A stretch of DNA of 64,000 bases from Psilocybe cubensis (lineage: Eukaryota). The stretch covers positions 3,534,001-3,598,000 of the forward strand of contig CM039002.1 of assembly GCA_017499595.2 (NCBI GenBank), in the 5' to 3' direction. The position numbers and the translations under genes were made by a program. Of this stretch, positions 747-56,123 are shown one piece after another (position 1 is the stretch's first letter; each line of letters starts with the position of its first letter). Under the pieces are notes generated by a model. It was given only the letters and a program-made list of their open reading frames with translations, was not told the origin of the DNA and did not search any database.

Positions 747-1108
747 TTAGGAAGAGGCAACGGGAGTTGGGTAGACGAGGTTGGTCGCGGTTTGCCTGGA
801 GTAGATGATGTTTGTCAGAATTCACCGAGATTTTAGACGACGTTACGCAGACTCACGTCCAGAGGAATGTTTCTGTCTCCGTCAACCAGTATGGTGAATA
901 TGTGACAATCGTGTTATACACTTTGGTGCCCGTGAACGTGAAGGTTTGTGTCGTGAGTGTTGGCTTCAAAGCGTCATTCTTTTCTGGGATCTGATTGCGG
1001 TACGTCAGACGAATCACACTATCCCGGGAGCTGCTGACATACAGGGGATGCATGCACTGAAAGCGAGACGAGGGCGAGGAGAGTGAATGGTTTGAACGTA
1101 AAATGCAT
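747..1108 (-). CDS. Small secreted Thr-rich protein (~80 aa, 2 introns), unknown function
   Basis: Manual splicing of two GT-AG introns gives MHFTFKPFTLLALVSLSVHASP|IPEKNDALKPTLTTQTFTFTGTKVYNTIVTYSPYWLTETETFLWT|QTATNLVYPTPVASS*. The N-terminus looks like a signal peptide. Confidence 0.75.
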
Positions 1109-2807
1109 AATAGATGGAAGAGGAAAGGTAAGCTTTACTGCCTACGATCAAAGGAAGAGAAAAGGGTATGTTTGTCTGAGATTGTGTCTGAGTGCGTCTT
1201 GGGGTTCGCGAAATTCGGTCCTTCTTATATCAACGATCGATGTGAATATGGTGGATGAATGGCTTGCAGCCTTACCTAGTTCTAACGCTCGGCGATCCGG
1301 TCTTGCAGGGCAACATTGGGGCCGCGGATCCGTACCACGCAATTACTCTTGGTCTAATTGGAGTGCTCACGCGACATTTCTATATTCAAGAGTCGGTGAA
1401 TAGCGATGGGACTATAATGACGCATGGTGTTTTCTCGGAATTTGTTGGTACTCGTTACTGAGAATGACACCATTTGGTGTTGTCGCGATTGTGCTGTGAA
1501 ACACTGCAGCGGAAAAATAAGTGCTTGATCAGGGGGTTTTATTTATGTCGAAAGTCCACTCACGAGGTATGACACGTAGAATCGTTATACCGAATGTTTT
1601 CTGACTTCACGGCGTTGACTGTGCTGCTGGCCGTTAGGCGTCACCGACCAGTTGAATTGGGGCTAAAATAGTCTTGGGCTGGAGAAAGAGGCTAGACGAG
1701 AAGCAAACTTGGCTCGGTTTTATTAGAGTTAATGTGTTCTATTCTCCAAAGCGTCTAATTTTACTCACAGTCCCAAGAACTTCAGAAGAGGATACTCAGC
1801 AATCCTCGTAAAATCACCTATGTAATTGATTTCTTGCCTTTCAAACTCCAGTAATAATCTATGATGATTCATAAGCATTCCTAGCGAAGCCTCGCATTAC
1901 ACCTGAAGCTGCCCTTAAGAAGCCCACTTAACCATGCAAACCGCGTAAAATATCTATCGAATATTCTTGGCCAGTCCTGCCCAGATTGTATAATGTATGT
2001 AAATATGGTGGGGCGTGGGATGTTATGGCCGAATAGAATATCTCAACAACCTAGCATAAATGCCGCACAACGAGTTCGGTCGGATTATCATATGACACGA
2101 CCGCGTGGGTCCCGGTCCACTTCACTCTACAACTCAAGTTCTGGTGTAAAGACTTGCGCCGGATTCAGATCAACAGTATCATAGACATATTACATCCATT
2201 AGCGAAGCAACCTAATGACCAGAGTATCTGAATCATAGTATAATCGAAGTGTTGAGTATTCCCTCGCATTTCGAGTTGGTTGCACCATCCAAATCTGCGA
2301 GTGACAGTGTCTTGCACAGCGTGTCCACACGCGCACAGATTTTGGTGGTGTTCCGCACCCAAACCCTGATATCATTGACATCAGGTTACTAGCCATATAC
2401 CATCATTACTTACTCACTCTCCTTGGCATATCTACACGTAACGCAAGATCCTCTTGCTCCTCATCTCTGTTCACCAGCTAAAGACACATAGTATTATTTT
2501 ATCTCCATTTCAATTCAAGGTCTCGGTCAGACCCTACATTTGCACCTGAATTCTCATTCCTTTGACGCAGCTGTGGACATCAGATCGCTTATTCTCTCCG
2601 AGGTAATGCTGAAGAAAAAAATCAGGGATAAACATAAACAAAGGCATAAATTGCATATCTGAGTGAGCATGTACAGCTCATACATATGGCCTAACTCTAT
2701 GTCCTTTCTATTTTCTGTTCATATAGCTCTATGCAATTGCCTGTAATTTATTAATCAGGATATCGTAGTTTGTTGAGGGAGTATCCTCACATTGTCATGG
2801 CAAATAT

Positions 2808-3002
2808 TTAATTTGCGTCAGATCCAGATCCGGGGCATGGATCGACGATACAAACAATATGACTTTCCTCTACAAAGAGCATGAGCATCAACACTGAGAA
2901 GAAGGAGAAATCTAGCAAACCAGCAGGGGTAGGAGCCGCCAAAGTGAGTTGTGCGAACATCACGAGTCCTGCAAGAATGAGTGCTTTGAGAGTGAATTTC
3001 AT
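2808..3002 (-). CDS. Tiny secreted peptide precursor (47 aa), HIxCxxxPCP family copy 1
   Basis: ATG 3002 and a 51-nt phase-1 intron (2870-2920, GTTTGC...TTTGTAG) give MKFTLKALILAGLVMFAQLTLAAPTPAEESHIVCIVDPCPGSGSDAN*. TATAAA lies ~60 nt upstream; a paralog is at 39060-39323. Confidence 0.75.
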   Translation of the reverse strand: MKFTLKALILAGLVMFAQLTLAAPTPAGLLDFSFFSVLMLMLFVEESHIVCIVDPCPGSGSDAN

Positions 3003-3119
3003 ACTGCAATGGGTGATGATAGAAATTTTCAACGTGTATTCTTATTTTTTGGGAGTTCCGACTTTATATCGTTCTCTTGGGCCTAAAAATACAATTTGCG
3101 AGCTTCCGCGAGCTTACCT

Positions 3120-3185
3120 GGGACCGCGCAGTCTGTCATTCTCTCCTGTCATCGCGTGAACACACTGTCTGTTGACACTGGCTTT
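3120..3185. promoter_or_regulatory. Upstream motifs shared by the two HIxCxxxPCP peptide genes
   Basis: GGGACCGCGCA(gt)CTGTCAT at 3120 and TGACACTGGCTTT at 3173 recur upstream of the paralog (39464, 39492) in otherwise dissimilar DNA. Confidence 0.5.
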
Positions 3186-5484
3186 TGTTCAAACTATTCT
3201 AAACTGGGAAGTTTACTAATAAATTAGTAGCATACATATCACGCTGGAATGAATGGTGTTGATTAGCTTGTTCTTCAATGGTATCGTATGTATATGATCT
3301 GAAGCTCTTCAGGTCGATTTCAGGACAAAGAGCCCAACATGTCAGGGCACGTCAAAACATGCCTTTGACAGCGAACTGTCATATGATCAATACTGAAGTA
3401 AAGCCAGTGGGCGGTTTGTCGGTGTTTAAATTCTACCACTGATAGCGTCGTTCAGAATAAACCAATACATCGCTAATATATCCATGGAGATTAGATTGAG
3501 GCAATCCCTCATGGAGAATGCTAGAAATTCATTGAACTGCATTTGAACTGCATGGTAGTCAAAAGCTTCCAGCGCACACCTGATGATAAAGTCATCTCAA
3601 ACTTCTAACAGTCTGAGAGAGCCGACTTTTCCCATTCATATTTATGGATACATTTATCTCTGTCCGAGTAGAAATAAGACGAATTATAACTTGGTGATGG
3701 CACTAAGACTGAGTGCCAACAACAAACTTGAACCCCACAGTTTGCCCACAGTCACGATATACCGTGGAAATGTTGCGACATGCTGTGACAAATTTGGCTC
3801 GTGGCTGTGCAGCTTCTTCTTCCTCTCTCTGCGATCACCAGGACCATCCAACGTTCGGCTTTGCAACTATAAGGTGTTGTTAACATCGCCAAACTGCTAA
3901 AACAAGTCTGTTAATCCCACCTTAACAAAATTTTCCCTCAAGGTAGTCAGAATGATGCCGTTCGCAAGTATAACACACCCTTTCTTGCTGCACAGAGCCT
4001 AGAACATCGAGGCGCGATGGGTTGATGGAATCGTTCGTGATGAAGTTAATGCGCTATTGAAGGATATTAGTAACTATACAGTGAGTACTGTACCTCAGTT
4101 CCTCTTCGTTTCTCACAGATGAGAGTTGTACCCCTGAGTAGGACATCGTACACTCATGAGCTGCCTCAACTGCGAAGAAACAACGCGACTTGTAACCACA
4201 CTGCTTCGCCGACTTGGGCAAACAGCCGTACGATATATCGATACCGCCGAACCCGAAAAGGAATGACAGCTGGGAGCCCTATTGAGCATACCTCACCCAA
4301 ACAGTTCCTTCCTGAAACAAAGCCTTTATTCCCAACGGCCAGTGGAATTATAGACCCATTCAGTGCGTGCCAAAATCAGTTGAAATTTTCTGGAGGATGT
4401 GAATTAAAGATTTAGGTTGACAGTATGTCGGTGCCATGGTCCTCCCCGACGCAACAGATTAGCAACTGATCTTTGCAACAGAGTCGCGAAATGGGGTTCC
4501 CTCCATTGTATCCCTTACTCGTGACCGTAAGACTCATTGAATCTGATTTTCTCCCCAAAATGACCTGATAGTTATACACCATTTTTGGCAGATCTAATTG
4601 GAATTTCTTAGCATTTTGCGTTTCAGAATCGCATATATATGCAAGATGGCTGCTTGCATCAACCAGAGTCACGAGTCTCCTACGAATCCAACGTTATCTT
4701 CTGTACATGAACGTACAATGCCTATTACAAGGGTTCCTTGAATGGTGTATTACCTGAAGAAGTTGAGAATCCAGCTTTCTTCGTCCACTTTCTCGAATTC
4801 ACTGTTCCTGTCAAATGCGAGTTCCCAGATTACTTGCATCTGGTACAACGCCCCGAAGATGGTGTATATCTTACAAATGCCGCCTTGGAGTCCCTCATTA
4901 ATTTGAAATTAACACGATGCACTTGCGACGATCATGAGCGGGGTTACTTCAGGCGAGGATACTTATGGGTTTGTAGATGGTAACTGCATATTTAGTGTCC
5001 TTGCATTCCCGCATCTGGACTCTGGATGCTCGAGATCACAGCTGTTGAGCGGAAATTTTTGTCTTCATCGACATATATTTTAGACGTTTCCTTTGGAAGA
5101 TGGACAACTATATGATAAAGACAAGTACGTAAGCATTTGTCGAAGTAAACATCACTTTTCTGACCTATTTTTCTACCAGATCACACTCCTGTCAACAATT
5201 GTATCCCCGTTCAATTTAACTGCTCCATGATTGCAATGATCCCATGTCTATCTTAAGGCCTGGATAGTCTAACCCATTCTGTCTAGTGTTTCAAAAACGG
5301 GCTGCTTCGTGTTCGCAAGCCATTCGCATCACCGATTTGTGGCTCCAGTCCTTGACCTTAGGTTTATGGACTTTTCTCATATCATTCAAGGCAGTATGAT
5401 GATCAGAAGAACTGCCTTTGTTGCTAGGTTCCAGTTAACGGTTAAATACACGGCCTATAATATTTAGAAAGCCCTTCCAATATC

Positions 5485-8400
5485 ATGCCAAATCATATCG
5501 GTACGTGGATATAGTGTCCAGCGCATTACTCTCTTCTGACTCTATTTAGAGGTTTCTGCGTTTGTCGTCTGTCTGTTTTGGGTACGATGGGCATTTGCCT
5601 GTACGTCATTGGCACACATTTACAGAAATTCTCGAAGTAATATTTATTATAGCACCTACACTATCTGCTTTAACGGTCGAAAACCGGGTTGAACCACTAG
5701 GAGTCGATGTAAATCCTAGGTTCTCATGGATTATATCCTCGGCGATGAATAATGATGTCCAAAAGTCATATCGCTTGCGAGTTTCAGCTGTAACAACGCC
5801 AGTGGAAAGTCCACTCTGGGATACAGGAATCATTTCTTCGAAAAGGTCTTACCTGATTGAATACGGTGGGGCCGCTCTGGTGTCCGATACCCAGTACACA
5901 TGGACCGTCGAAGTCACGACCGCTTCAGGAAGCGCCTCTGCATCATCTTCGTTTTCCACGGGCCTACTGACTAATAATGACTGGGGATCCAGCTTATGGA
6001 TTGGTAAACCAACAGTTGGAAATAACGACAGCACACCCCCGGACTTGGTTTCATCGTTTCAAAACTCGTCATGGATATGGACTTCTGAGACTAATCCACC
6101 AAATGCACCCGCTGGCGACAGAGTTTTCCGACGTACCTATGTTCCTCCACCTGGACGACGTGTTATGTCTGCCGATATCTTAATAACGGCAGATGACCAG
6201 TTTACAATGTATGCTGATGGCACATTCGTTGGATCCTCTTCTACGATTGCAGATGTCTGGAAGGACGCACGGTTTTTCTCTATCCCCTTGTCATCTGATA
6301 CTCCCTCGTTTGCGGTACATGCCACCAACCTTCCTGATGTGGGCACAGGTGGAGACAGTCCTGCAGGGCTGCTAACGTCAATTAAAATTCATCTCGACAA
6401 CGGTAATTCGGAATTTGTGACCACTGATTCCAGCTGGTTATCAAACAAATTAGTTCCAAGTGATTGGAACGCGGCGAATGCATCGACCACAGGATGGTCC
6501 TCTTCTAATGTTCTAGCGCCATATGGACAAGGACCATGGACAAATCAAGTTGCAATTCCCACTTCGGTATCTGTACTTGCACTATCGTTCGCTCAGTCAA
6601 ATTGGATATGGTCATCCGAAAGTGATCCCCTCCTGGCTCCACCTGGATCACGAGCATTTCGCAAAACGTTTACAGCACCTAGCGGTAAGACACTACAATC
6701 CGCGACAATCCTGATATCAGTGGACAACGAATTTAAATTGTATGTGAATGGCGGCCTCGTTGGAGTATCACCGAATGGCACAGATTGGACATTAGCGCAA
6801 AAGTTTATTGTTGACCTCACCGGCGCTTCGGCTGTTTTTGCAGTCCTAGCAAACAATCTGCCGGACCAAACCACTGGGGGTGCTAATCCAGCCGGCCTCC
6901 TAAGCACCATTCAGATTGAGCTTACTGATGGCTCGACACAGACCTTGGTATCTGATAGTACATGGCGAGTTGATTCAACAATTCCCGATGGATTCGAGCT
7001 TCCTTCCACAGATGATTCATCTTGGCCATCTGCAAACTCAATTGGATTATATGGAATCCAACCATGGGGTACTCAAGTTACGATATCAGAGTCTCTCACT
7101 GAACATCCCGCGCCACTTTTACGCAAAGAATTCACACTCTCCAAGCCCATTTCTATTGCGCGGCTGTATTACGCTGCTGGGGGTTATGCAAGCATTACAA
7201 TCAACGGCGCCCCAGCCTCCGATCATGTCTTAACTCCAGGATTCACCAAGTATGATACCGAACTTCAATATGTGTCTCTCGACGTCACTTCCCTTCTCAA
7301 CTCCGGCACAAATGCGATTGGAACAGAGCTCGGCAGGAGTCACTATGGTGTAACCCAGGAAAACCTTTGGAATTGGAATTTTGCGCCATGGCACGGCGAA
7401 CCACGGGTTCGCATGGTGCTTTCCATTAGCTTCACGGATGGGACATCGTTCAAGGTTGTAACAGATGATACGTGGCAGGTCATTGAAGGTCCCACGCGCC
7501 TGGATGATATATTTGGAGGGGAAAATTTTGATGGTGAGTTTTTCATCTGACTACCCGTGTTGGTATCGCTCTAATAGCCCATATTTTGCCAGCAAGCTAT
7601 ATACAGAATGGATTTGACTCACCTGGATTCAACGCGTCTGCATGGGGTAGAGCATCGATAATGCCGGATCCGTTAGGGGTCCTAGTTAGCCAAAACCAAC
7701 CCCCCACGCGCCTGATACAGAGTTTGAATCCCACGGATATCACACAACCACAGCCAGGGATCTTCGTGGCCCATTATGAGCGTGTGGTATCGGGGTGGGT
7801 TAAATTGACAGCGTCTGGGTCTGCAAAAACGCTTATCACGATCCATTTTGGAGAGAAATTAAATGTGAGTTGCACGATTGTGTTTAGGTGGCCGAACTTA
7901 AACACCCTGACTTACCCATGAACTTAGTCAGATGGGACTGTCAATTTCCAGGATACACAACACAACTTTGCAAACAACTTCCAAACAGGTGCGTACTGCT
8001 GCTGGTTACCACACTAAAGCGCCTCATTCACCCTCCGAAGATCGATTTTGGCTCGCAGGCACGGGTTCCCCAGAAACATTTGAACCGAAATTTAGTTACA
8101 AAGGATACCAGTACGTCCAAATCGAAGGATGGCCTATGAATTCCCCTCCACCGACACCCGCGGACATTATTGGACGTGTTGTCCACGATGACCTCACACT
8201 TCGGGGCGGGTTCCAATCCTCCAACGACCTTTTGAATAAAATGCACACAGCGGCTGTATTTACTCTTCTCAACAATGTCCACAGCATCCCCACCAATTGT
8301 CCTACTTTTGAAAAGAATGGTGGCACGGGTGATGCAATGCTCGGCACGGTAATTGCCATCTTCACTACTACTCATTATTCAATGGCTCATAAAGGACCAA

Positions 8401-9455
8401 CATTTGTGTGTCATTAGGAAATGTTTCTACTTAATCTTGAATCACAAGATCTTCTTGAAAAATATCTCAGAGATGTCGATGAAAGTCGCCCAAACGGATC
8501 GGGTCCTCCTGCAGTTATTGCTCCGGATAGCGGATGGGGAGCGAACAATCAAGCTCCGACATGGCAGTCTGTGTAATCAACATTCAGATGTAATATTATA
8601 CTTACCTTTACCATTTTAAGCTCTGTCTTAATCTTTATTCCGTGGTGGATATACCAGTATCGGGGCGACGAGAGAATTCTCTTGAATCATTACGACAGCA
8701 TGAAGAACTACGCCGATTTTGAACTTGGGCGTTCTATAAACAACATTGCTCAGACCTCATTTGGTGACTGGAATGCACCGGAGACAAGCCCCTTGGGAGG
8801 TAATCCACCGGAGGATTCTCGAGTATCCGCAACAGCCTTCTTGTACGTGTCCTTTTTCTCTGTGTCACAAGGCTATCACCAACAAATCACCTAGATATCA
8901 GATGCTAACCGTCATGGGTGAAATCGCTACAGTACTCAACAAGTCATCAGACGCGTCAACATTTTCGACTCAGGCACAGAATGTTAAGAGTGCATTCAAC
9001 AACGCTTTCTTAAACCCTACCACTGGATACTACACCGGCGTTGGAGATTCGGGATACCGTCAAACACATAACATTCTTGCCCTTGCATTTGGTCTTGCCC
9101 CTAATGCGAGTATTCAGAAAATCGCAGATAGTATATCTCAAAATATCTCCTCCATTGGAACACACCTCAATACAGGAGCACTTGGGACAAAATTCTTACT
9201 CCCCGTGCTAACTGACTTTGGCCACGGAGATACCGCGTTTGCTGTATCGCAACAAACAACATTTCCTAGTTGGGGATATTGGATTGAAAATGGCGCAACC
9301 ACTATGGTATGTTGTAAATTACTACATTTATGTTTCTGCTTACGCGATCGCAGTGGGAGCATTGGTTATTGACCGCTCGCTCTCATGATCATGTACGTTA
9401 TTGTACTTTCTCCTTCTTTGTATGGCACTTATTTGAATTTGATAACCCAGCTATT
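5485..9455 (+). CDS. GH78 alpha-L-rhamnosidase, 5' part (signal peptide, two CBM67-like repeats, catalytic barrel); interrupted by a LINE
   Basis: Motifs EPLGVDVNPRFSW, APLLRKEF, LTPGFTKYD, FEPKFSYKGYQYVQI, HSIPTNCPTFEKNGGTGDA, FGDWNAP, PSWGYWIENGATTM|WEHW, SHDH. Two tandem WIW..FR..PAGLL..YG.PW domains. Start modelled at ATG 5485 via two short introns, downstream of TATAA. Confidence 0.9.
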
Positions 9456-9635
9456 ACCGCTCCTTGATCCGCAACTACCACCTTCAGCACACTTCCCACG
9501 CACCTAGAGCGCAAGGGATTGGACTGGCAGGAGTATTAGCAGTCGAGTAGAGTAAAAACACACAAAAAACGTACCTAAAGTACCCCCCACTGATACCCAA
9601 AACCCAAAAACACCCACGCACATTAAAACTGTCAT

Positions 9636-11210
9636 ATGAACGTCAATACCGGCACCGCGCGTGTCAAAAAGACGGGCATGGGAAACTCAGCTACCCCGAG
9701 TCAAAGCGATCCTTCCACTGCCGACAGAAGCTCGAGGAGTAAAGGCACGGTGATCAACGAAGAACTCCAACAAGTCCAGGACGCGAAAGGAGGGAGAGCG
9801 ATGCTCGAGGACCACCAGCTACTCGTGCCAGCTGGCGCAGGACTGACGGCACATCGGGCCGCCGCCTGTCTATTTCAAATCTCGCAGATGTCAGCAAAAA
9901 TCCCACCGATAGTGATTCAAGCCATGCGAGGCCTGGCTTTTATGTTGGAAGAAATGGAGATACCCTTGGCGACCCAAACCTATCACGACGGCTTCGGAGA
10001 GGAGCTCGCGACCTTCACAAACGAAATAAAAGCCCTCGTCCAACATGCGCAGGACCAGGTCGATCAAAAACTCGAAGAAATAAACAAGGCCACCGCCGAT
10101 CTTATCAAATCGGCCGCGGGTAATCCGGGGCATCAAGCACCAAACGCAGGTACGTCCTACAGTCAGGCTCTATCAAAAGGGCTCTCTACGGTCAACCAAA
10201 TCCTAGTCCAGTCGAACGTCGCCACCAACCCTAGGGTACTCGCACGCCATGGCATCCGAGCAAGGCAGACAATGCTCGAGGGGATCGACAAGGAGGCCAA
10301 TATCAGCACGATGGGCGACAAGGAAGCGAAGGACTTGATTAACAAAATCCTACTGAAACTCGAGCCGGAAGGGTCAATACGCATCCGATCCGCAATCAAG
10401 CAGAGAAATGGCGGCCTGTTGATCGAGTTTGACGCTGACTACGGAGCGGCTTGGATGAGAGTGGAGGAGAACCGTCGAAATCTTTGCAAGGAAATTGGCA
10501 ACGACGTCACAACCAAAAAACGCACGTACGAGCTTATAGCGATGGGTGTTCGTCTCACCGCCGAACCCGACGATGACGACTTCTTGAGGGAAGTGGAGGA
10601 AACCAACAGGGTTGAGGAGGGAACAATAGTGGCCATGCGATGGGCCAAGAAGATCTCGAGGCGAACCGAAGGCCAGCAGAGTGCTCACATCATCCTTACG
10701 GTAAACGACGCAAGCGAGGCTAACAGACTAATTGCAATTGGAATGTACATAGCGAACAAACGGGTAAGAGTACAGAAGTGCCGAAACGACCCTATCAGGT
10801 GCCTCAAGTGCCAGGGATACAACCACTTCGCGAAGGAATGTACATCCAAGCAAGACATCTGCGGCCACTGCGGGAAGAAAGGTCATCGTACTCCGAACTG
10901 CGAGGAAACCAAAACGCACTGCGTATCCTGCGACGCTGACGACCACCCCAGCTACGACAGGAACTGCCCGGTATTCCTGAAGAAAGTACTCGAGAAGAAC
11001 GAACGAACCCCAGAAAACAGGCTCCCATTCATCCCTACGGACGAACCATGGACCTGGAGCGTTGACACCAACTCGGCACCTTCAACCTTCAAAGGCAAAG
11101 CGTTTGCACGAGGGCAGTCTCCCAGGTGGACGGTGGAACCCCCGACCAACGCGAAGCGTACGCCGCTCCAGACGCCCGAGCAGAGCCCGGAACCCGAACC
11201 CACTAAATGA
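9636..11210 (+). CDS. LINE ORF1 (gag-like nucleic-acid-binding protein)
   Basis: Intronless 524 aa with three zinc knuckles: CLKCQGYNHFAKEC, CGHCGKKGHRTPNC, CVSCDADDHPSYDRNC. Confidence 0.92.
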   Translation: MNVNTGTARVKKTGMGNSATPSQSDPSTADRSSRSKGTVINEELQQVQDAKGGRAMLEDHQLLVPAGAGLTAHRAAACLFQISQMSAKIPPIVIQAMRGLAFMLEEMEIPLATQTYHDGFGEELATFTNEIKALVQHAQDQVDQKLEEINKATADLIKSAAGNPGHQAPNAGTSYSQALSKGLSTVNQILVQSNVATNPRVLARHGIRARQTMLEGIDKEANISTMGDKEAKDLINKILLKLEPEGSIRIRSAIKQRNGGLLIEFDADYGAAWMRVEENRRNLCKEIGNDVTTKKRTYELIAMGVRLTAEPDDDDFLREVEETNRVEEGTIVAMRWAKKISRRTEGQQSAHIILTVNDASEANRLIAIGMYIANKRVRVQKCRNDPIRCLKCQGYNHFAKECTSKQDICGHCGKKGHRTPNCEETKTHCVSCDADDHPSYDRNCPVFLKKVLEKNERTPENRLPFIPTDEPWTWSVDTNSAPSTFKGKAFARGQSPRWTVEPPTNAKRTPLQTPEQSPEPEPTK

Positions 11211-11267
11211 ACGAGTAACGACGAGAGAGAGAAGACGCCGACGGCGCAAAGGAAAGACAACTAAGAG

Positions 11268-23543: not shown

Positions 23544-25237
23544 TGACGTCGTATGTCCTGTCTGTGAGGAATTACATTCGATGACATATAGAATGGAGAA
23601 AGACATACATTTAGATTGGAATTATACTTATAATATAGTTTTTTTAATTGCAAAAATATTATTTGGATATCTGAGCCCGAGAAACAAGTTCAAATTGAAG
23701 TATTAATAAAATGTCCTTACGCCAGTACACTTTACAAGTCCTCCTTTAGTAGGAGGATTCATTTATATCGCCAAAATTCTGGCCGTGAAACGCTTAATGG
23801 AACGGCGACCAATCGGCACATATTATCGGAGATTGAAATTGGCGATTTTGCCAGTTCATTGGGCAAGGAACCAACTGGCTATGAAATCTCGGCTCTTGAT
23901 GTTCGGCAGAGTTTCGGTGGAGAACGAAATCGGATGAGTACTTGTAATCTGCCGTGCATATCAACGGCCTACCTTACAAGTCACCTTCTTTCCTCCATAT
24001 TCCCTCACATCTCAACTCAGAAAAATATACATCATTCAATACCTAACCGCTCCAACGCGTGAGAAATAATTAACACCTGTCCCCAACCTGCCCCTAAAAA
24101 TAAAAATAGCTTGTTTGTCACCGGTGTTTTCAAGTTGCGGTGATGGAAGTACATTCCAGTAATTACACTCTGATAAGCGTATGATTAACTTGACAATGCT
24201 GCGTTATTTATCTTCTGGAATGCAAGAAGGCGTATCGACATTGGATTTCTCTCTCATTCCTTGATTGACCAATATTTTACCCTAGTTTTCATGTTCATCA
24301 CTCCCATTCCTCACATGTACATTCACCAAACTTTTGAATGGCAGATACTTAGAGAGTTTTGGAGGTCAAACAATGCATAATATCATTATCTACAACTGGT
24401 CAATTGTCAAATTCCGTGGCCGAGTGCACGCTTTGTTCAATTAACCCACATCAGGATCTTCCCGAGATCAAACTAAAAGTAACCCTAGCATTTCAGAAAA
24501 CGCCGGGTACAAACTACGCGGACGTTTGAATACACTGCTAGCTGCGATGTCAAGATCACAATGTTATGGAAAGAGAAATTACGCACCATCTTAGCCTGTT
24601 GAAAACATATACGGCCTGAATTATCACGTAAAATGCAATTTAGAAAACGGCCTACTGAGCAGAAACGAGACACACTTCATGTTAATCCTCATTGGAATGA
24701 AAATCTGGTCATTATTATTTAGATCTTTACATTCCCTTACACCACTAGAACACATTATAAATTCAGTGATACCGGCAATGGAAGATACCTGAGCCAAATA
24801 TTTACATTCTCAGAGTAACAGTAGCAATTGACACAACTGTGATGCCAAGTATCATCTGAGCGCCTCATTGCACAGGCAGTTCCAGAATTTGTGGGTGTGC
24901 CACCAATAGACAGTGAAATGCAAAGAAATACGATTACAAAAATAGTATACCGTCTGTCTTGTCGCATAGCTTTTACTCCACAATGCTACACCTCTTGTGA
25001 AAAGAAGACGGTACGTGCCTGCCAATGTCATTTTTGGGACTCATTTCACGAATTATTTTAAGATTTCGCACGTCAATTGGCGTACATCACATCTACTTAC
25101 CATGGTCAGAATTAACTATAGGCATGAACATATATACCTCCACAGTAGACGAAAAAAGTATTAAAGGTAATGGTTTGCGGCTCGAATAAGCATCCTCGTT
25201 GCTCAATCTATACTGAATACGCGCCAAATCTTGCAAG

Positions 25238-25978
25238 ATGAAACTTTCACTCCTCCTTGCTGTCACTTCTTCCATTTATGCAGCCTCAGCGGCTGCCTTG
25301 TTCACACCAGCGGTGACTGTGAAGCTAGTCATTGACGATCTGGTCAAGTTCAGCACTCAGTTCACCAAAATCACGGCGGATGTCAACAATTTCCCCCAAA
25401 CGGGAGCTCAAGGAGCAAGCGTATGTTCTGTTGCGTTTCTACTGATCATCAGCCCTAATATGATCATTTTCCTATCAATGATATTCAGGCGAACGAGGTC
25501 GCATTCCACGCTAACACGATGGTTAACAACAACGATGCAGCTAGGGAAGGACTCGTTCTCGCACATGATTACGCCCCAGGCCCCGGCCCTTGCCACCCGT
25601 TCCCAGGCGCCGTTGCAGAGGATTGCCTCTCGCTCATTAGCGAGAACCTCAACAACGATACCGTGGTGCCCTGCATCAACGGCCTCGCCACATTAACCCA
25701 AGGCGAATGCTCAATTGTCACCACCTGCAATAGCGCGATTGCAGGCAAGGCAAATGCCCCAAAGAACGGTATTATGCGGTATCTTGCCGTCCGCCGCGCT
25801 TTGACTACTATTGGTTCTTGCGCGTTGTCGGACTATGGTTCCATTTCGGGGTACTATGTCGCTGACAAAGGTGTGAAGACTTGTTACCTCTATCCTGGAA
25901 GGTGAGTGCTTGGTACCTAGACTGAGCGGCGAGCATAATTTACAAGTTTCTGTTGCCAGTGAAAGCTCTTGCAAGTGA
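25238..25978 (+). CDS. Secreted Cys-rich protein (~205 aa, 2 introns) with an HsbA-like N-terminal segment
   Basis: Signal MKLSLLLAVTSSIYAASAAA; VIDDLVKFSTQFTKITADVNNFPQTG; C-terminal domain with 8 Cys (PCHPF..EDCLSL..VPC..ECSIVTTC..IGSC..KTCYLYPG|SESSCK*). Confidence 0.75.
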
Positions 25979-30722: not shown

Positions 30723-31483
30723 TGGACGAAAGGCTGATAGGTATCATGGAGTTAGCATGGATGCTGAGAGCACTATGAATTACAGCGCCCAAGGACAACG
30801 CCGCTGTCGACTTTGTTGTGCAAAGTTCACCGTGTGAGCCAAGACGTTCAATCTCCGCCTGAAATATCTGATCTCCAGGCTTGTCCAAACCTTTTTCTCA
30901 CAGTGTATTACAATTCATGTCCCCCACTTCTCGTCCCGTCGAGCCATCGCGTATTGCTACTCAGGACGGACTCGGTGGACGAAAGGCTGATAGGTATCAT
31001 GGAGTTAGCATGGATGCTGAGAGCACTATGAATTACAGCGCCCAAGGACAACGCCGCTGTCGACTTTGTTGTGCAAAGTTCACCGTGTGAGCCAAGACGT
31101 TCAATCTCCGCCTGAAATATCTGATCTCCAGGCTTGTCCAAACCTTTTTCTCACAGTGTATTACAATTCATGTCCCCCACTTCTCGTCCCGTCGAGCCAT
31201 CGCGTATTGCTACTCAGGACGGACTCGGTGGACGAAAGGCTGATAGGTATCATGGAGTTAGCATGGATGCTGAGAGCACTATGAATTACAGCGCCCAAGG
31301 ACAACGCCGCTGTCGACTTTGTTGTGCAAAGTTCACCGTGTGAGCCAAGACGTTCAATCTCCGCCTGAAATATCTGATCTCCAGGCTTGTCCAAACCTTT
31401 TTCTCACAGTGTATTACAATTCATGTCCCCCACTTCTCGTCCCGTCGAGCCATCGCGTATTGCTACTCAGGACGGACTCGGTG
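30723..31483. repeat. Perfect tandem repeat, 253-bp unit x3
   Basis: Unit TGGACGAAAGGCTGATAGG... starts at 30723, 30976 and 31229; identical ORFs recur at 253-bp spacing. Confidence 0.95.
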
Positions 31484-32102
31484 TTCGGGGATTGGTACAC
31501 TGCACTCTCGTGGCTTGCGGCTCGCGGGCTGATGTACGGGGTGAATTGGGTACTTGATGCTTGGAGCGCGGGATTTGGTTTAGTGTCGTGTCATGTTTCC
31601 TCTCCCCCTCTCTTCTCACTTTATTGCTCTGCATTTTCTTATCTTCCGTCGTTGCATCTCCTTTTTTATTTTTGCCGTTCTTTCTTGTTCTTCCTTTTCC
31701 TAATTTATTGGCTGTTGATGATTTAAAGATGATTCTCTTCTTCTCTCATTCTCTTCCCTCCTTACATATTTCCCTTACCACAGGGCATTCGGCACATACC
31801 CTCGCACACAAAACAAGAAATGAGATATCCTATTCTATCCTATTTCGACTTTGTCATGTTGCAATCATATGGACTTCGAGCATGACAGTGGTAGTCGCCT
31901 GTATTTGCACTTGTTGGGATGTGACGTACCCTGCCTGTCCTGGTTAATTAACACGGACTTCAAAGACTCAAATAAAAGCAAAAGAACAAGCGACATTGTA
32001 TATGTAATTAGAACAATATACTATTGAAAAAAGACAAAAATTCGCCAATCTTGAGCAAATGTTTAACGACGTCCCCGTAATCGTCGAGATCACATATTTC
32101 TA

Positions 32103-33240
32103 TCAGGATGAGACGGGAACGATCTTGATTTCTCCCGTTCCCTCGTCGACAATGACATTCCACTCGGTGTGGGCAGCAAGACCGATCAGGTTTTGGTAAA
32201 ACAATAGCGGGCTCTCAACGTCGCCTGTGATTAACTGCGAAGCTACAATTTTTACGCAGTTAACAGTCAAGTGCAACACAACATTATAACAACAACCTAC
32301 TTTTATAATCCGTAGTTGCATATATCTTAAGCCTTGGTGTAAGCTGGACGGAAAGAGTGGCGTTCTTACTGTATATGGTGTTAGTTGGACGACAAATTCG
32401 ACACAAAAAGGACTCAGATTACATACGCAACATTCTGCCACAAAATAGCAGGCTCCATCTTATTCCCAGCCTTGTTGAAGAATCCCTGAGATATACAGAT
32501 GAGTGCTGTTCAAACAGACGGAAATAAAGCGTCATACGATTCCTATGTTCGCAGGTTGTGGGGTGACATTGGTGCATTGCATAACACCTGCAGTTCCAGT
32601 TTTTGCATCGGTGATATGATTCATCAGCCCGTTGCTGTTAGGCGCAAGGGTACACCGCTGCCCAGTCTTCAATGCTGGAATATTAGTGGATGTGCCAAAG
32701 TTAATAGCCATTTAGAATACATGCCTCACAAGGCTGAGAGTTTGATGCAGCTACAAAATTGCCTTGTTTTAACTAATGCTCATATGGTCAGATTTATCTA
32801 GAAAATGTGGCTAAAGGGAACAAACCTGGGGTGCAAAGAATCCAGTTGCAGCTGTATAAGTGACTGTGGCAGAGTTAATTCCAGTTCCACTGAACGTAAT
32901 AACCTCTATGTATCACTCAGTAATACGACCATAACACTTGACATAGGGTGTATGACTTACTCCAAGCAGTGGGGAATAAGTCTGAGTAAAGTTTTCCAGC
33001 GGCTGGGGGTTCAAACATAAGGAGAAGGGTGATATCGACTTTGGTGTTGGCTGCATAGAAATCCATTGTCCTGGTGTTTCCCGCTACAGCCTCAGGTTTA
33101 GCAAATTGATTAAGAAGTCTGAAATGCATGATATCAATATCCTTGTAGCTGAACTGTACAAGATAATGTGAATCTCACGCTGGCGCTGCAGATTCTGCCG
33201 CTACAGATTCTGGCGTTACAGATTTTTCAATGTTTGACAT
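32103..33240 (-). CDS. Hypothetical beta-rich protein (7 introns, one GC-AG), complete left-arm copy
   Basis: ATG 33240 lies in the spacer with TATATAA ~33331. MSNIEKSVTPESVAAESAAPA|LLNQF..TRTMDFY..LMFEPP..LFPTAW|KVITFSG..FAPQ|LKQGNFV..CE|TGQRC..NIGI|GFFNKAGNKMEP..|..LTPRLKIYATTDYK|TSQLITGDVESPLLF..TGEIKIVPVSS*. Confidence 0.8.
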
Positions 33241-33342
33241 TTTGCAAAACGCTGGTGAATGTGATTGAGATGTAAGAAGGAAGTTTGCGATGATGATGGT
33301 TTTTTGGGCATCCTGTGGAGGAGCTTATATACATTTTCTGAC

Positions 33343-34439
33343 CAGAATCTGCAGCGCCAGCGTGAGATTCACATTATCTTGTACAGTTCAGCTACAAGGA
33401 TATTGATATCATGCATTTCAGACTTCTTAATCAATTTGCTAAACCTGAGGCTGTAGCGGGAAACACCAGGACAATGGATTTCTATGCAGCCAACACCAAA
33501 GTCGATATCACCCTTCTCCTTATGTTTGAACCCCCAGCCGCTGGAAAACTTTACTCAGACTTATTCCCCACTGCTTGGAGTAAGTCATACACCCTATGTC
33601 AAGTGTTATGGTCGTATTACTGAGTGATACATAGAGGTTATTACGTTCAGTGGAACTGGAATTAACTCTGCCACAGTCACTTATACAGCTGCAACTGGAT
33701 TCTTTGCACCCCAGGTTTGTTCCCTTTAGCCACATTTTCTAGATAAATCTCTGACCATATGAGCATTAGTTAAAACAAGGCAATTTTGTAGCTGCATCAA
33801 ACTCTCAGCCTTGTGAGGCATGTATTCTAAATGGCTGTTAGCTTTCGCACACCCACTAATATTCCAACATTGAAGACTGGGCAGCGGTGTACCCTTGCGC
33901 CTAACAGCAACGGGCAGATGAATCATATCACCGATGCAAAAACTGGAACTGCAGGTGTTATGCAATGCACCAATGTCACCCCACAACCTGCGAACATAGG
34001 AATCGTACGACGCTTTATTTCCGTCTGTTTGAACAGCACTCATCTGTATATCTCAGGGATTCTTCAACAAGGCTGGGAATAAGATGGAGCCTGCTATTTT
34101 GTGGCAGAATGTTGCGTATGTAATCTGATTCCTTTTTGTGTCGAATTTGTCGTCCAACTAACACCATACACAGTAAGAACGCCACTCTTTCCGTCCAGCT
34201 TACACCAAGGCTTAAGATATATGCAACTACGGATTATAAAAGTAGGTTGTTGTTATAATGTTGCGTTGCACTTGACTGTTAACTGCGTGGAAATTGTAGC
34301 TTCGCAGTTAATCACAGGCGACGTTGAGAGCCCGCTATTGTTTTACCAAAACCTCATCGGTCTTGCTGCCCACACCGAGTGGAATGTCATTGTCGACGAG
34401 GGAACGGGAGAAATCAAGATCGTTCCCGTCTCATCCTGA
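33343..34439 (+). pseudogene. 5'-truncated right-arm copy of the 32103-33240 gene
   Basis: All downstream exons are intact, but the copy starts inside exon 1 (..GAA TCT GCA GCG CCA), preceded by an in-frame TGA, and lacks the ATG. Confidence 0.7.
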
Positions 34440-34699
34440 TAGACATATGTGATCCCGACGATTATGGGGACGTCGTTAAACATTTGCTCAAGATTAGCCT
34501 CAATTTTGTCTTTTTTCAATAGTATATTGTTCTGATTAAATATACAATGTCGCTGGTTCTTTTGCTTTTATATTAGTCTTTGAAGACCGTGTTAATTAAT
34601 CAGGACAGGAGCGGTAGGTCGTATCCCAACAAGTGCAAATACAGGCGACTACCACTGGTATGCTCAGAGTATAGATGATTGCAACATGACAAATTTAAC

Positions 34700-35185
34700 A
34701 CAGGATAGGATAGGATAGATGAATTACGCCCTCTAACACAAACACGACACACCGCACACCGCAAAAGACACAATGCGTCTGACGAAAATTTAACTAACAC
34801 TCAACACTCAACACACCGCCAGAGACAGTCCGTACATAACTCCAATTACCACAATCCCACATTAACGCGATTTGCTGTGCGGTGCTGACGTACACCTCCC
34901 AAGTTCAGATTTTCTACGACTACGACTTTTAAAGTACAGCCACGCTCAACTCGAACTCTCACACACCAACCTGCCCACGCAACACCATTGCCCACCGCGC
35001 CTTCGCCTCCGCCCCAACGAACCCTAAGATTCAGAAATCCACCCGTCTACCCATGAGTGCAGTTGCGTCCGTGTGGGGGCCCAAAGCGGCTGTGTGGTGG
35101 ATATTTCATTGCTTGTTTTATGTGCAGAAAAGAAAAGAAAAGAACGAGTGACCCACCTCCAAACATGGACGCAACCTTGAACGGC
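34700..35185 (-). pseudogene. Degenerate remnant of the PHO88/SND3 3' region
   Basis: 35160-35185 matches the reverse complement of GGCCTTTCAAGGTTGCGTCTATGTTTGGAGGTGGGT (~47210). 35055-35110 matches the last exon, and 34700-34900 matches the 3' flank at 48780-49000. Confidence 0.65.
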
Positions 35186-51300: not shown

Positions 51301-52906
51301 GTATCTATCTGATAATTTATTGTTGTTTGAATGTTCGATGGGAAGGTACAATAGGCAGTGCTCCACCTCGATTGAATTGGTGCTTTGGTGCTGTCAGAAG
51401 GGTGAAAGGTTTCGACAAGCCCGAGGCCTTGATCTCTGAATCCATCAAAGATTTCAAGCGGAGATTGAATGACTTCTGTCCTCCACAGTGAACTATGCTA
51501 CTTTGTATGTACTTAGGCGTTGCAATAGATGTCACTCTCAACAGGCGTACCAGATCCATTCATCTAGAATCAGACACATATGAGCTGGCTTCTAACACAC
51601 ATACCACACCACGTAGCTTACACTGACTCCCTCGCATCCACCTCCACTTCCACAAAAACTACCCTTCAGCTTGAGATTCCCACATCATTTTATTTGTCCG
51701 CCTCATGTCTCCATACCCATGCGCTTGTAGATGCTGCTATTGTGCACGTACGTGTGTAGACCAAACTTCTATAAGAATCTGTAGGAACTCTGTGTTTACG
51801 TGCCTAAAAGAACTCATCAGAAGAATGTTCCATAATCTAACCGGCCAATTTGTTTCTCTTGCCTGTCGTCGAGCTCAGAGGACAAGATCGTTACGTTGAC
51901 TGGCAACTTCACGGAAAGCTCCGACCGTAGCGCCTTTCTAGGTCTGACAGACCTGAGCAATGACAGTGGGAATTGACGGTATCGTAAGTGTTTAGGCATT
52001 GTATTCTCCGGTAATATTGAGTTACGCGATCCCGATAAAGGTAAATCGACATCGAGGCTCGATTAAACCTCCATACAGCAACTGAATTAGTTATCTTGGT
52101 GTTTCCCTGTATTTCCATTGAGTACGTATGTGAGAATGCAAGTACTGAGAACGAGTAGGAGTTTCAATTCCGCAGCTTGCGTTGACAGAAGCTAACATAG
52201 CCGAGTAAAAGTCGACACTTGACATTTTTTTGGACCGCGATAGGTAGTATATGAAATCGATGGCGGTCCGAATAATATGGACAAGGCATTTTATGACATG
52301 GGGATTAAATTTGATTGCGGTAGATGATTAGATCCGCCAGCCAGATTCCTTGGGAAAATTCCGCCTGCCAGATAATTGCATGGTATATTATCAATTATTA
52401 TCAAATTAGACTAACTAACGTGGTGCTTTAAATCACCGTAGGTCATTGTGACAATTACCAGGCACAGCACAAGATAATATACCGGCCTTCTCTAGGATTA
52501 TTAAAGTTTAAAGATGATCTATTACGTCACATGTGAGGTCCAGATTGACAACTAGCTCCGGTGAGAGACAACTATGTAGATGTTATTGGGACTAGGCTGA
52601 ATGGTTAGGGGAACGCAGGATGAATTGCTTGGATATCTCAACGGTTTTTTGTTATATGTCCAGAAAATGCCAGTAAGATAATTGTTTTGTCACAAATAGG
52701 ACGATTGGTGCGATATAAAAAGAATTTTTTATGGAATTTTGTAAGTATGACAATTTGACGCAGTGGTTTAACGTGCACCATGGGCACACGACAGAAAAAA
52801 CTGTATTGGTCTAAGTCAAGTAATGAGCCAATAGCAATGACACATTGTTGGTGACGTCTTACCTCTGAACCCAGTGGTAGAGCTATGTATATCTATCCCA
52901 AGATAC

Positions 52907-53531
52907 TCAGACAAATCTGAAGGTAACCAATGTATCAGGAATCGAATTTAAACAACCAGTCCAGGTAAAATATACGTACGGGAGTGGGACAATCCGGACA
53001 TCTTTCTTGGTGTAGTGCTTTCCTAGGATATTAACATCAATATCAATGGCAAGCCATTTCTTCCCGTTATATGGTATCAGGTGAAGCGTAAGTAATCCGG
53101 AGATTAATTTGCTGGAACCAATCTTCAGGGTAATTCCGTCGTTTAGGTTCCCTTTGATGCTTCCCAATTTTACCTCTGGGAAAATTGGAACTTTGATGGA
53201 GACTGTAAAATCGCAGGTGCCATTTTGAAAATTGATGGTGCCGCGTAACTTTGAAGCAGAGAAACAGTGTGTAATTGCATACCTTGAGGATAGCGGGTCC
53301 AATCGGTATATCAGTATTGAGCTCCCACAGTTCCACGTTCTGTGGATCTAATGCGGGGGGGCCAAAGAGGGAGAATGCATGATATTCGTCAGTGACAGCA
53401 AGGTGGCTATCAATCCACTTGTGAATTGGATGATCGTCTAGAGAAAATAATATCCAGATATGTATCAGATGCATGGATAGAAACGCGAAAGACACCATAA
53501 GATGTTGCTACATACCGGGGATGGAAGACAT
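52907..53531 (-). pseudogene. Left-arm copy of a ~150-aa hypothetical beta-rich protein gene; intron 2 shrunk to 34 nt
   Basis: Same exons as 56124-57881, but a 29-bp deletion between TGCT microhomologies removes the GCTGAT branch-site candidate of intron 2. Confidence 0.6.
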
Positions 53532-54496
53532 GATTTACTCAGGAGACACGGTCTGAATTGGTGAAACAGGTATGTTTCTTGGGGTGTAATCTAGAAATTT
53601 CACCACTATTTATCCAAAATTTGGGCTCTGCAATTGACATGATGTCCACTCGTATACAGGGGAGCGATGGATGAGTGCTGACAGGAGCCAAACAGTAACT
53701 CATGTCGATAAAGCTGTTATTGCCACGATCCAGGACATTGTTTGTAACCGGGGAGTTTTCATTTGCGTAATGGATGGAACCTCTCTGGGAAGTCATGTAT
53801 TGTTTAGCGTATATTTCCGCTTCCCATGTCAGACAACTCACTGCTTTCCTGGAAGCCTTGTTTATCATTCAAATACAGGTGTTTGTAGCCGGAGATTTTT
53901 CTTGCATCTTGCATGTAACTTCTAAAAACTCATGTCAATAAAGCTGTTATTGCCACGATTCAGGAAATTGTTTGTAACCGGGGAGTTTTCATTTGCGTTT
54001 CGCAGAGATGCAAAAGAGAAATCCCCGGTTACAAACACCTATATTCCACCAGACAACGTTTTTTTCACATCGACACGAGCACTGACAAAGTTTGAAATAC
54101 TAACCGCTTGTGAAAGCCATATTGTAAGCTAAATACAGCATTAATGCGTGTCTTGTCCGAGACAAGAGCTATGCTAGTAGCAGGTGTGTTAAGATTATAT
54201 ATGTCTGAAGTTGAGGTTATAGGTAGTCAATCCATTCTGTGTCAGATATACGCACAGGAAGGGTGTTTCATTGTCAATCTTTAATCTTTAATGTATATGA
54301 TAAGCTTAAACATTCGCTAAGCTGCTTCACGAGTAGTTACCCACCCCAAAACGGGGGACAAACAGCGGACGGCTAGCCATACGAATTCCCGGTTACAAAC
54401 ACTTGTATTCGAGGGATTCAAACAAATCTCTGAGGAAAGCTATGAATTGTCTGACAAACTTTGTCAGTGCTCGTGTCGATGTGAAAAAAACGTTAG

Positions 54497-55607
54497 TATG
54501 GCTGTCCGTTTGCACATTTAATACCAATATATAAACTTCTTGTCCCATACATATAAGTCATAATTGAATATAATTCCAAATACATACTTTGGTGTCCCGG
54601 TTATAGACAGATGGTTTGCAAACATAGAGGAAACCATCCTGGTTATTATTTTTGCATGCCCTCCAGTTTGAATGGAAGGTACACACATAGAAGTATGTAA
54701 ACCGTACATCAAAAACTTAGCACCACACTCTGTGACCCTCTCCGCATAATACCGCAACTTTTGTCCGAAGATATAGAGTTGTCAAGATGACTATCATGCG
54801 TGCCGTCCTTGCCGTACAAGCGTGGGAACTCAGCTTTCGTCCGGCTTTGCAGTGGAATTGCTACTTGTGAAGGATGTAGGACGGCCGTTGCAAGGTCAAA
54901 AAACTCTTTAGGAGTATTAATTTACACTCTTTACCAGTTTAAATGTGTGTATAGGCTATAAAGGCAAATTTATTGCAGAGTTATACCTGCAATCTTAACT
55001 TCAGGCCTTTTTAAGCCTTAGCACGGCGACTACGGGTGGCCAAAACACTCGTCAAAAGCTATAGAGACATGATATCTTTGTAATTAGGGTTAATACATGC
55101 AGATACCCACTTCTATTAGATATGTGAATCTTTTTCATTGCTCAATTAGTGTGTGTCGACAGGAACAGGCATGTACTGTTATTTGTCTCCTCATTTGCCG
55201 AGATTTGCCGAAGTCTCACGATGTCCAGGCAAGCACGGCATAGACACATGCCGAAAAACAACTATATATCTTCGGGAGGAAGAAAGGCAAAAGAAAGGTC
55301 AAATCACCCATACGGGGAACCTGCAGACATATGCAAGGAAGCAAAAATATGTATTAAAGGGCATGTTTGAACTCTCTAAAAGATTGTGCTTTGTATATGT
55401 GGGCACCAAAACTATATGTATGGTACTCAAAGTTGTATCTGAGGATGCAACCTGTAAATGTATGGACTCTGGATCTATATGTTCGGAAACCTCTTCTCTA
55501 TCTGCGGAAATAAGAGAAAATACTTATGGGAGCCTTACTTCTAAGATTTCTATGTATGGAACAAAAAGTTTATATATTGGTATTAAATGTGCAAACGGAC
55601 AGCCATA
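54497..55607. mobile_element. Non-autonomous TIR element (1111 bp), copy A
   Basis: Ends TATGGCTGTCCGTTTGCACATTTAATACCAAT / ATTGGTATTAAATGTGCAAACGGACAGCCATA with long imperfect inverted ends; absent from the mirror arm; no clean TSD. Confidence 0.88.
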
Positions 55608-56123
55608 GGAATATAGGTGTTTGTAACCGGGGATTTCTCTTTTGCATCTCTGCGAAACGCAAATGAAAACTCCCCGGTTACAAACAATTTCCTGAATCGT
55701 GGCAATAACAGCTTTATTGACATGAGTTTTTAGAAGTTACATGCAAGATGCAAGAAAAATCTCCGGCTACAAACACCTGTATTTGAATGATAAACAAGGC
55801 TTCCAGGAAAGCAGTGAGTTGTCTGACATGGGAAGCGGAAATATACGCTAAACAATACATGACTTCCCAGAGAGGTTCCATCCATTACGCAAATGAAAAC
55901 TCCCCGGTTACAAACAATGTCCTGGATCGTGGCAATAACAGCTTTATCGACATGAGTTACTGTTTGGCTCCTGTCAGCACTCATCCATCGCTCCCCTGTA
56001 TACGAGTGGACATCATGTCAATTGCAGAGCCCAAATTTTGGATAAATAGTGGTGAAATTTCTAGATTACACCCCAAGAAACATACCTGTTTCACCAATTC
56101 AGACCGTGTCTCCTGAGTAAATC

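Follow-up and report, generated by a model that had tools for sequence, protein, structure and literature searches.

Two predicted small secreted peptide genes of Psilocybe cubensis share a cysteine loop that resembles the loop of the metalloprotease inhibitor SMPI

SFTI-1, a Bowman-Birk peptide of 14 residues with a single disulfide, illustrates that a peptide of this size can be a potent standard-mechanism inhibitor; unlike the fungal pair described here, it has a nine-residue ring, is backbone-cyclic and is directed at serine proteases. In the inhibitor SMPI (PDB 1bhu), residues 62-69 read V-T-C-V-R-F-P-C, with Cys at positions 64 and 69, which we take to be joined by a disulfide, and the scissile bond is presumably Cys64-Val65. 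SMPI is reported to inhibit thermolysin, pseudolysin and griselysin, and its mechanism is called unknown in an excerpt of PMC9002140, while a title in the reference list of PMC4229192 assigns it a beta-gamma-crystallin fold. A further described system, IMPI (MEROPS I8), is characterised in excerpts of PMC9002140 and PMC9299988 as acting on thermolysin-type enzymes by the standard mechanism, its P1' Ile lying in a disulfide-anchored loop, a feature that it would have in common with the peptide proposed for gene 1 below; it differs from the fungal pair in its 68 aa, five disulfides, reactive loop C52-C59 and Asn at P1. The KEPs and STE13-trimmed agaric peptides treated in part of PMC9769878 are similar to the fungal pair in another respect, since they are made as signal-peptide precursors with X-Pro dipeptides before the core.

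The locus was analysed in a window of 64,000 nt (G000:C5:3534001-3598000) from a 46.6-Mb, 21-contig assembly of P. cubensis, and the genes that it contains are in keeping with an agaric. A preliminary description of this DNA had proposed a family of micro-peptides with two secreted precursors that share H-I-x-C-x3-P-C-P and carry a phase-1 intron within a Glu codon, the introns of 51 and 84 nt being in frame and free of stops. Both minus-strand gene models were recovered with predicted signal peptides, and the splitting of the Glu codon by the introns (2920-2870 and 39205-39122) was borne out, as were the open read-through frames. The features of the two genes are as follows.

2921..3002, minus strand: gene 1 exon 1, coding, ATG at 3002, with a short X-Pro pro-stretch after the predicted signal peptide
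2937-3002, minus strand: gene 1 predicted signal peptide, 22 aa, cleavage site inferred
2870..2920, minus strand: gene 1 predicted intron, 51 nt, phase 1, in frame, stop-free, weak donor GTTTGC, ends TAG
2808..2869, minus strand: gene 1 exon 2, coding for an acidic spacer, the loop and a polar tail, stop at 2808-2810
2832-2861, minus strand: gene 1 loop, H-I-V-C-I-V-D-P-C-P
2747..2752, minus strand: gene 1 candidate poly(A) signal AATAAA, about 55 nt past the stop
39206..39323, minus strand: gene 2 exon 1, coding, ATG at 39323, with an X-Pro-rich pro-stretch after the predicted signal peptide
39240-39323, minus strand: gene 2 predicted signal peptide, 28 aa
39122..39205, minus strand: gene 2 predicted intron, 84 nt, phase 1, in frame, stop-free, donor GTATGT, ends TAG
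39060..39121, minus strand: gene 2 exon 2, coding for an acidic spacer, the loop and a tail, stop at 39060-39062
39084-39113, minus strand: gene 2 loop, H-I-I-C-K-M-A-P-C-P
38988..38993, minus strand: gene 2 candidate poly(A) signal AATAAA, about 67 nt past the stop

The predicted products have 47 aa (gene 1) and 59 aa (gene 2) if spliced, and 64 and 87 aa if read through. Signal peptides were called from hydropathy and a rule, the signal region of gene 1 reaching a hydropathy peak of 2.7 over 11 residues, and their removal would leave 25 aa in gene 1 and 31 aa in gene 2, the mature part being acidic in the former and near neutral in the latter. The predicted cleavage sites are followed by the X-Pro dipeptides A-P,T-P in gene 1 and A-P,G-P,S-P in gene 2. 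The intron of gene 2 also contains a branch-like GCTGAT and a T-rich tract.

Both models are very probably real genes. When 241 kb were scanned blind for small models with two exons and a signal peptide, 18 models were returned, which included both genes with these same introns, and the second exons of the two genes headed the 153 possible pairs with a BLOSUM score of 49 (runner-up 27). A rough and noisy splice model was self-trained, with no annotation used, on about 0.5 Mb from the same genome; under it the splice score of gene 1 exceeded 96.5% and that of gene 2 exceeded 99.8% of 5000 random GT-YAG pairs. Between the two genes, five of the six loop codons (H, I, C, P, C, P) differ synonymously at the third base, and 9 of the 15 differences within the first 12 codons of exon 2 lie at third positions. 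The synonymous changes in the loop point to an old duplication with selection on the loop residues, and the reading of the genes as old paralogues under selection is supported by this comparison of codons.

The gene 2 locus was compared with a single strain run, X9, in which one contig spans the gene. Exon 1 is shorter there by 15 nt, which is five whole codons, so that its predicted signal peptide comes down to 23 aa (gene 1 has 22 aa), and the locus carries a further 6 nt in the intron and 6 nt in the 5' leader. By contrast, among the nearby indels listed outside coding frames, which number seven, none is a multiple of three. Two runs guessed to be RNA gave contigs over the neighbouring gene (37451-38831), none over gene 2 and no splice joints, and no RNA record was listed over gene 1, a result that is neutral for expression. 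Both genes are absent from the protein collections searched; genes this small with in-frame introns escape annotation or are mistranslated.

Upstream of the coding regions the two genes have six blocks in common.

3062..3208, minus strand: gene 1 promoter, with the six common blocks at 3208-3202, 3185-3173, 3153-3146, 3130-3120, 3094-3087 and the TATA box 3068-3062
39416..39553, minus strand: gene 2 promoter, with the same six blocks at 39553-39547, 39504-39492, 39482-39475, 39474-39464, 39450-39443 and the TATA box 39422-39416

These blocks are colinear, and their ungapped chain scored 21, a value reached by 0 of 2000 dinucleotide shuffles (maximum 20) under a statistic that was picked after the fact. 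A gapped local alignment of the two promoters was weak, with 18 of 1000 shuffles equalling it and several unrelated tiles scoring higher. The preliminary description had named upstream words common to both genes, and GGGACCGCGCA and TGACAYTGGCTTT do each occur twice exactly within the window, the former at 3120 and 39464 with a one-mismatch match at 50841 (three in the window; chance mean 0.67), the latter solely at 3173 and 39492 (chance mean 0.22). The words are given on the plus strand and the genes lie on the minus strand, and the words are thus antisense to the genes. As a genome-wide marker they failed, since neither the words (7 matches, control 6) nor a composite of them (5 matches, control 5) rose above control, and no enrichment of the shared words was seen at protease loci. 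The word AAAGCCARTGTCA gave 10 matches against 1 in the control; among the seven of its eight other matches that were inspected, none lies ahead of a small secreted gene, and a single repeat accounts for two of them. The proposed common regulation therefore stands only in so far as the six colinear blocks point to a shared promoter ancestry, which is its sole basis, and does not extend to a wider regulon. Each promoter also holds three TGACA/TGTCA words in 200 nt (window mean 0.56), which we take to resemble TALE-homeodomain sites; a literature search on this reading of the words found no paper.

The two genes form a pair of homologous members, and to that extent the proposed family stands, but no third member was found. 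Genome-wide, the strict motif gave 3 matches (control 1), the third having neither signal peptide nor intron; a looser motif gave 24 (control 23), with signal-peptide models at merely 2 of the 24; and an acceptor-anchored motif gave 112 (control 100), with no enrichment among the 30 loci fetched. Protein searches of the genome returned self-matches only. Searches by blastn and nhmmer over 241 kb plus the fetched loci found no third copy, a scope in which diverged members elsewhere could be missed. The protein collections held no homologue, the spliced product of gene 1 likewise giving no candidate, and two matches from them were set aside as repetitive proteins without the layout of signal peptide plus loop. 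Neither atlas and plasmid searches nor a metagenome search, in which 0 of 44 matches gave a fungal-type model, returned a homologue. The peptides had no match in Pfam, and in the PDB no match to 1bhu; one PDB match at E 2.5 was regarded as chance. Most queries were either the second exon by itself or a read-through frame left unspliced, and the sensitivity of these searches was reduced as a result. Further homologues, which the preliminary description had made a condition for its proposal, were thus found neither in this genome nor in the protein collections, and the absence refers to the sets searched only. It does not refute the genes, because related fungal genomes lie outside these sets and unannotated genes of 50 aa are missing from protein sets. 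The pair is unannotated; searches of the open literature, with subscription journals and supplements outside their scope, found no paper on these peptides.

The loop was then set beside that of SMPI, in a comparison that was made once the motif was known and is therefore post hoc. Gene 1 reads I-V-C-I-V-D-P-C, gene 2 I-I-C-K-M-A-P-C and SMPI V-T-C-V-R-F-P-C, all of them conforming to [VI]-x-C-x3-P-C. In each case the protein is of secreted type (predicted for the fungal peptides) with two loop Cys five positions apart, and the residue after the first loop Cys is hydrophobic in SMPI (Val) and in gene 1 (Ile). The differences are that SMPI has 102 aa with a second Cys pair, whereas the fungal peptides have 25-31 aa and no scaffold, and that SMPI is basic just upstream of the loop (R-K) where the fungal peptides are acidic. 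In six-frame translation the 241-kb region has 482,264 residues, among which the pattern matched 3 times, once in each of genes 1 and 2 and once elsewhere, and it occurred in 0.18% and 0.32% of 200,000 shuffles of the exon-2 peptides; with a post hoc comparison and four constrained positions, these shuffle figures overstate the weight of the match and are to be read as upper bounds. No statistical homology to SMPI was detected, either in Pfam or against 1bhu. Membership of the SMPI family (MEROPS I36) was rejected, since the precursors of 47 and 59 aa contain no beta-gamma-crystallin-type domain (PF03995) of about 100 aa. The proposal of a protease-inhibitor loop, made in the preliminary description, has thus gained a precedent in the SMPI loop pattern and no detectable homology.

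Among Streptomyces genomes, an SMPI orthologue (L411:437-832, minus strand, in genome G335; best PDB match 1bhu, E 8.9e-49) has a loop that reads A-I-C-V-R-F-P-C, and it was the only one in 401 genomes searched by pattern. PF03995 was matched in 141 of 151, and the other members inspected had no Cys loop, so that inhibitor activity may not follow from the Pfam name. Pattern scans of 301 Streptomyces genomes gave matches in 70, and the 36 loci inspected were chance or unrelated. The unpublished genome G135 underlies none of the conclusions drawn here.

Prokaryote genomes, scanned for [IV]-x-C-x-x-A-P-C-P, yielded at least 118 stretches, mostly chance, from which about ten loops in plausible genes were chosen by eye. 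When 11 bacterial proteins were scanned, DUF6748 (PF20533) was found in 7, 4 of them above the cut-off, in a set that had been selected by the loop pattern itself; since the DUF6748 proteins belong to a single family, they do not count as independent cases. In 8 of the 10 printed loops the third residue ahead of Ile/Val, which the search pattern did not cover, is acidic, as it is in both fungal peptides. Of the known systems compared, DUF6748 shows the longest motif agreement with these peptides, [DE]-x-x-[IV]-x-C-x-x-x-P-C-P. Kazal inhibitor domains are fused to DUF6748 in 2 of the scanned proteins, which offers a lead to DUF6748 in protease-inhibitor architectures; both are myxobacterial (L231:1057-2088 and L246:1009-2148, both minus strand). 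In one model of a DUF6748 domain (pLDDT 88) the loop appears as an irregular segment between strands, and a fold search with it matched OB folds of a generic kind, of which the best had Z 4.4 and none reached Z 5; rows for TIMP-1 and potempin C, tied with unrelated rows, were set aside. The loop would thus sit in an OB-like beta domain in DUF6748 and be free in the fungal peptides, which gave no match to the 196-position PF20533 profile (E up to 1 and 10) and were not assigned to it. A literature search on DUF6748 found no paper. What this bacterial echo shows is that the loop recurs, and not what it does.

The reading that we tentatively put forward, by analogy and at rather less than even confidence, is that the genes encode scaffold-free secreted metalloprotease inhibitors. 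The precursors would be secreted and cleaved before A-P, and probably trimmed of X-Pro dipeptides by an STE13-type dipeptidyl aminopeptidase, after which the two Cys would close a six-residue disulfide ring. This ring may inhibit secreted zinc metalloproteases as a substrate-like loop of the standard mechanism, much as in SMPI but with no scaffold around it. The peptide bond that follows the first Cys would enter the active site, and the disulfide would hold the cut ends to each other and make cleavage slow. The residue after the first Cys would then set the target. If SMPI is cut after its first loop Cys, the P1' residue would be Ile for gene 1 and Lys for gene 2. Thermolysin and fungalysin prefer a hydrophobic P1', and gene 1 might on this basis act on fungalysin (M36) or on bacterial thermolysin-like (M4) enzymes, and gene 2 on Lys-N (M35); under SMPI-like cleavage the two P1' residues would match these specificities, hydrophobic or Lys being a loose criterion. 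Lys-N is described in part of PMC11985622 as cutting before Lys at P1' and as occurring in mushroom fruiting bodies, and STE13-type trimming has been reported in agarics (PMC9769878, in part). Two Lys-N-type loci with HExxH and GTxD motifs were found in the genome, together with about 7 M36 genes, in 6 inspected loci of which HExxH was seen. One M36 gene (L153 / L174, G000:C5:3456201-3457674, plus strand) shares the contig with gene 1 at a distance of 79 kb, a proximity too weak to count as evidence. The free ring may be merely a substrate.

In its most specific form, the inhibitor reading holds that the two genes encode free-standing metalloprotease inhibitors of about 20-30 aa with a single disulfide, whose P1' has diverged to Ile and Lys, and that [IV]-x-C-x3-P-C is a portable inhibitory module used in SMPI, DUF6748 and fungi; we consider this form, drawn from analogy, doubtful. 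If true, gene 2 would supply a natural Lys-N inhibitor, none of which was found in literature searches, and the pair would be a metalloprotease counterpart of SFTI-1. From the inhibitor reading in general it would follow that zinc endopeptidases can be blocked by no more than a disulfide ring of six residues, a scaffold that a swap at P1' could tune. DUF6748 would gain a testable function, and the peptides would offer a handle on the mushroom's control of endogenous fungalysins and Lys-N or of M4 proteases from bacteria. Should the inhibitor reading fail, the genes would still be a well-supported though lineage-restricted pair, coding for small secreted peptides of limited interest.

Other functions could be envisaged for the same layout, among them signalling and metal binding, which the preliminary description had also offered and which the results neither support nor refute. 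The ring C-x4-C-P has the size of that in oxytocin-type hormones, and the peptides might be signals in which the ring is a receptor ligand and the two paralogues are two specificities, possibly in development- or mating-related control. The TGACA/TGTCA words in both promoters, as mentioned above, and a prepro layout with X-Pro dipeptides like that of STE13-trimmed fungal peptides (PMC9769878, in part) are in keeping with such a role, yet the spliced precursors have neither KEX2 sites nor repeats, no receptor gene was identified beside either gene and only two members were found, so that we regard signalling as unlikely. We judge as similarly improbable that the products are direct antimicrobial, surface or other non-protease defence peptides, or that the genes are now silent. 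Their position within about 140 kb of the contig end (102 kb past gene 2), amid small secreted-protein models and a LINE, is of a kind typical of lineage-restricted secreted genes; the acidic or near-neutral mature parts are, however, unlike cationic antimicrobial peptides, and the intact frames, in-frame allele and conserved promoters argue against decay.

An N-terminal X-X-His is the ATCUN copper/nickel site, and trimming could expose such an end (E-S-H in gene 1, D-V-H in gene 2), with the Cys pair adding metal or redox capacity. The His is kept through synonymous change, and the 6 and 12 residues from the predicted signal cleavage to X-X-His, both even, would suit dipeptide trimming; this agreement in parity is a 1-in-2 event for a paralogue pair, however, and the trimming would require removal of dipeptides other than X-Pro or X-Ala. 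Metal binding leaves the conserved I-x-C and P-C-P unexplained, no paper was found on fungal secreted ATCUN peptides, and we hold this function to be quite improbable. Least probable of all, and very unlikely in our view, is that the introns are often retained and that the resulting proteins of 64 and 87 aa, which would have one more hydrophobic stretch, are membrane microproteins or a membrane-anchored isoform. That both introns are multiples of three and stop-free has a chance of about 1.8% (1/9 x 0.70 x 0.23), the insertion in the X9 intron is also of 6 nt, and the read-through stretch of gene 1 has a mean hydropathy of 2.0 over 19 residues. Against this, genes with open read-through are the more readily noticed, so that the coincidence looks stronger than it is, a T-rich intron will yield hydrophobic residues in any case, and the splice signals score well; the intron-coded stretches are unequal (17 and 28 codons) and align poorly, and that of gene 2 reaches only 1.5 in hydropathy and contains K and R.

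Two described classes of fungal peptide were also considered and rejected. Basidiomycete lipopeptide pheromones are defined by a C-terminal CaaX, and this identity was dismissed, as the C-termini here have no Cys at -4 and signal peptides are predicted; the pheromones are made in the cytoplasm without a signal peptide, according to an excerpt of PMC9769878. The pair was not placed with the KEPs or dikaritins either, for it has a signal peptide and XP/XA dipeptides, as predicted, but one core, no repeats, two Cys and no KEX2 dibasic site in the spliced forms; in the main text of PMC9769878 'cysteine' and 'disulfide' have 0 occurrences. By its predicted signal peptides, length below about 250 aa and lack of a known domain, the pair appears to fall among the fungal small secreted proteins in the broad sense.

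Several other features of the window may be recorded. A third small secreted gene model (747-1108, minus strand) lies 1.7 kb downstream of gene 1 and is unrelated in sequence to the pair; it has three exons (introns 1042-991 and 856-796) and would encode 82 aa with 18 Thr and no Cys. A multi-exon gene like GH78 alpha-L-rhamnosidases (5550-9372, plus strand; PF08531, PF25788) is directly followed by a LINE, an apparently intact non-LTR retrotransposon (9627-15224, plus strand) with a gag-like zinc-knuckle ORF and a long pol frame, which is interrupted by one in-frame stop at 13182-13184 and in which endonuclease, RT and RNase H-like motifs were recognised by eye. Paralogous single-exon ORFs of about 460 aa are found at 20185-21672 and 37295-38797 (plus strand) in duplicated blocks, with a decayed copy near 29700; the ORF at 20185-21672 had no Pfam match, and the runs guessed to be RNA gave contigs over the copy at 37-38 kb and a paralogue. 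Large nested inverted repeats at 31826-34717 and 51582-59508, with arms of up to 793 nt and 98-100% complementarity, could be recent foldback duplications or elements, or assembly artefacts. Exact tandem copies at 30723-31483 (253 nt, three copies) and 44159-44676 (259 nt, two copies), 100% identical, are likewise possible assembly artefacts. A multi-exon, Cys-containing secreted protein with no Pfam match is encoded at 25217-25905 (plus strand). Upstream of the window lie three more models of small Cys-containing secreted proteins, L159, L158 and L157 (G000:C5 near 3,518,500, 3,519,300 and 3,497,500), which indicates that the region is rich in such genes.
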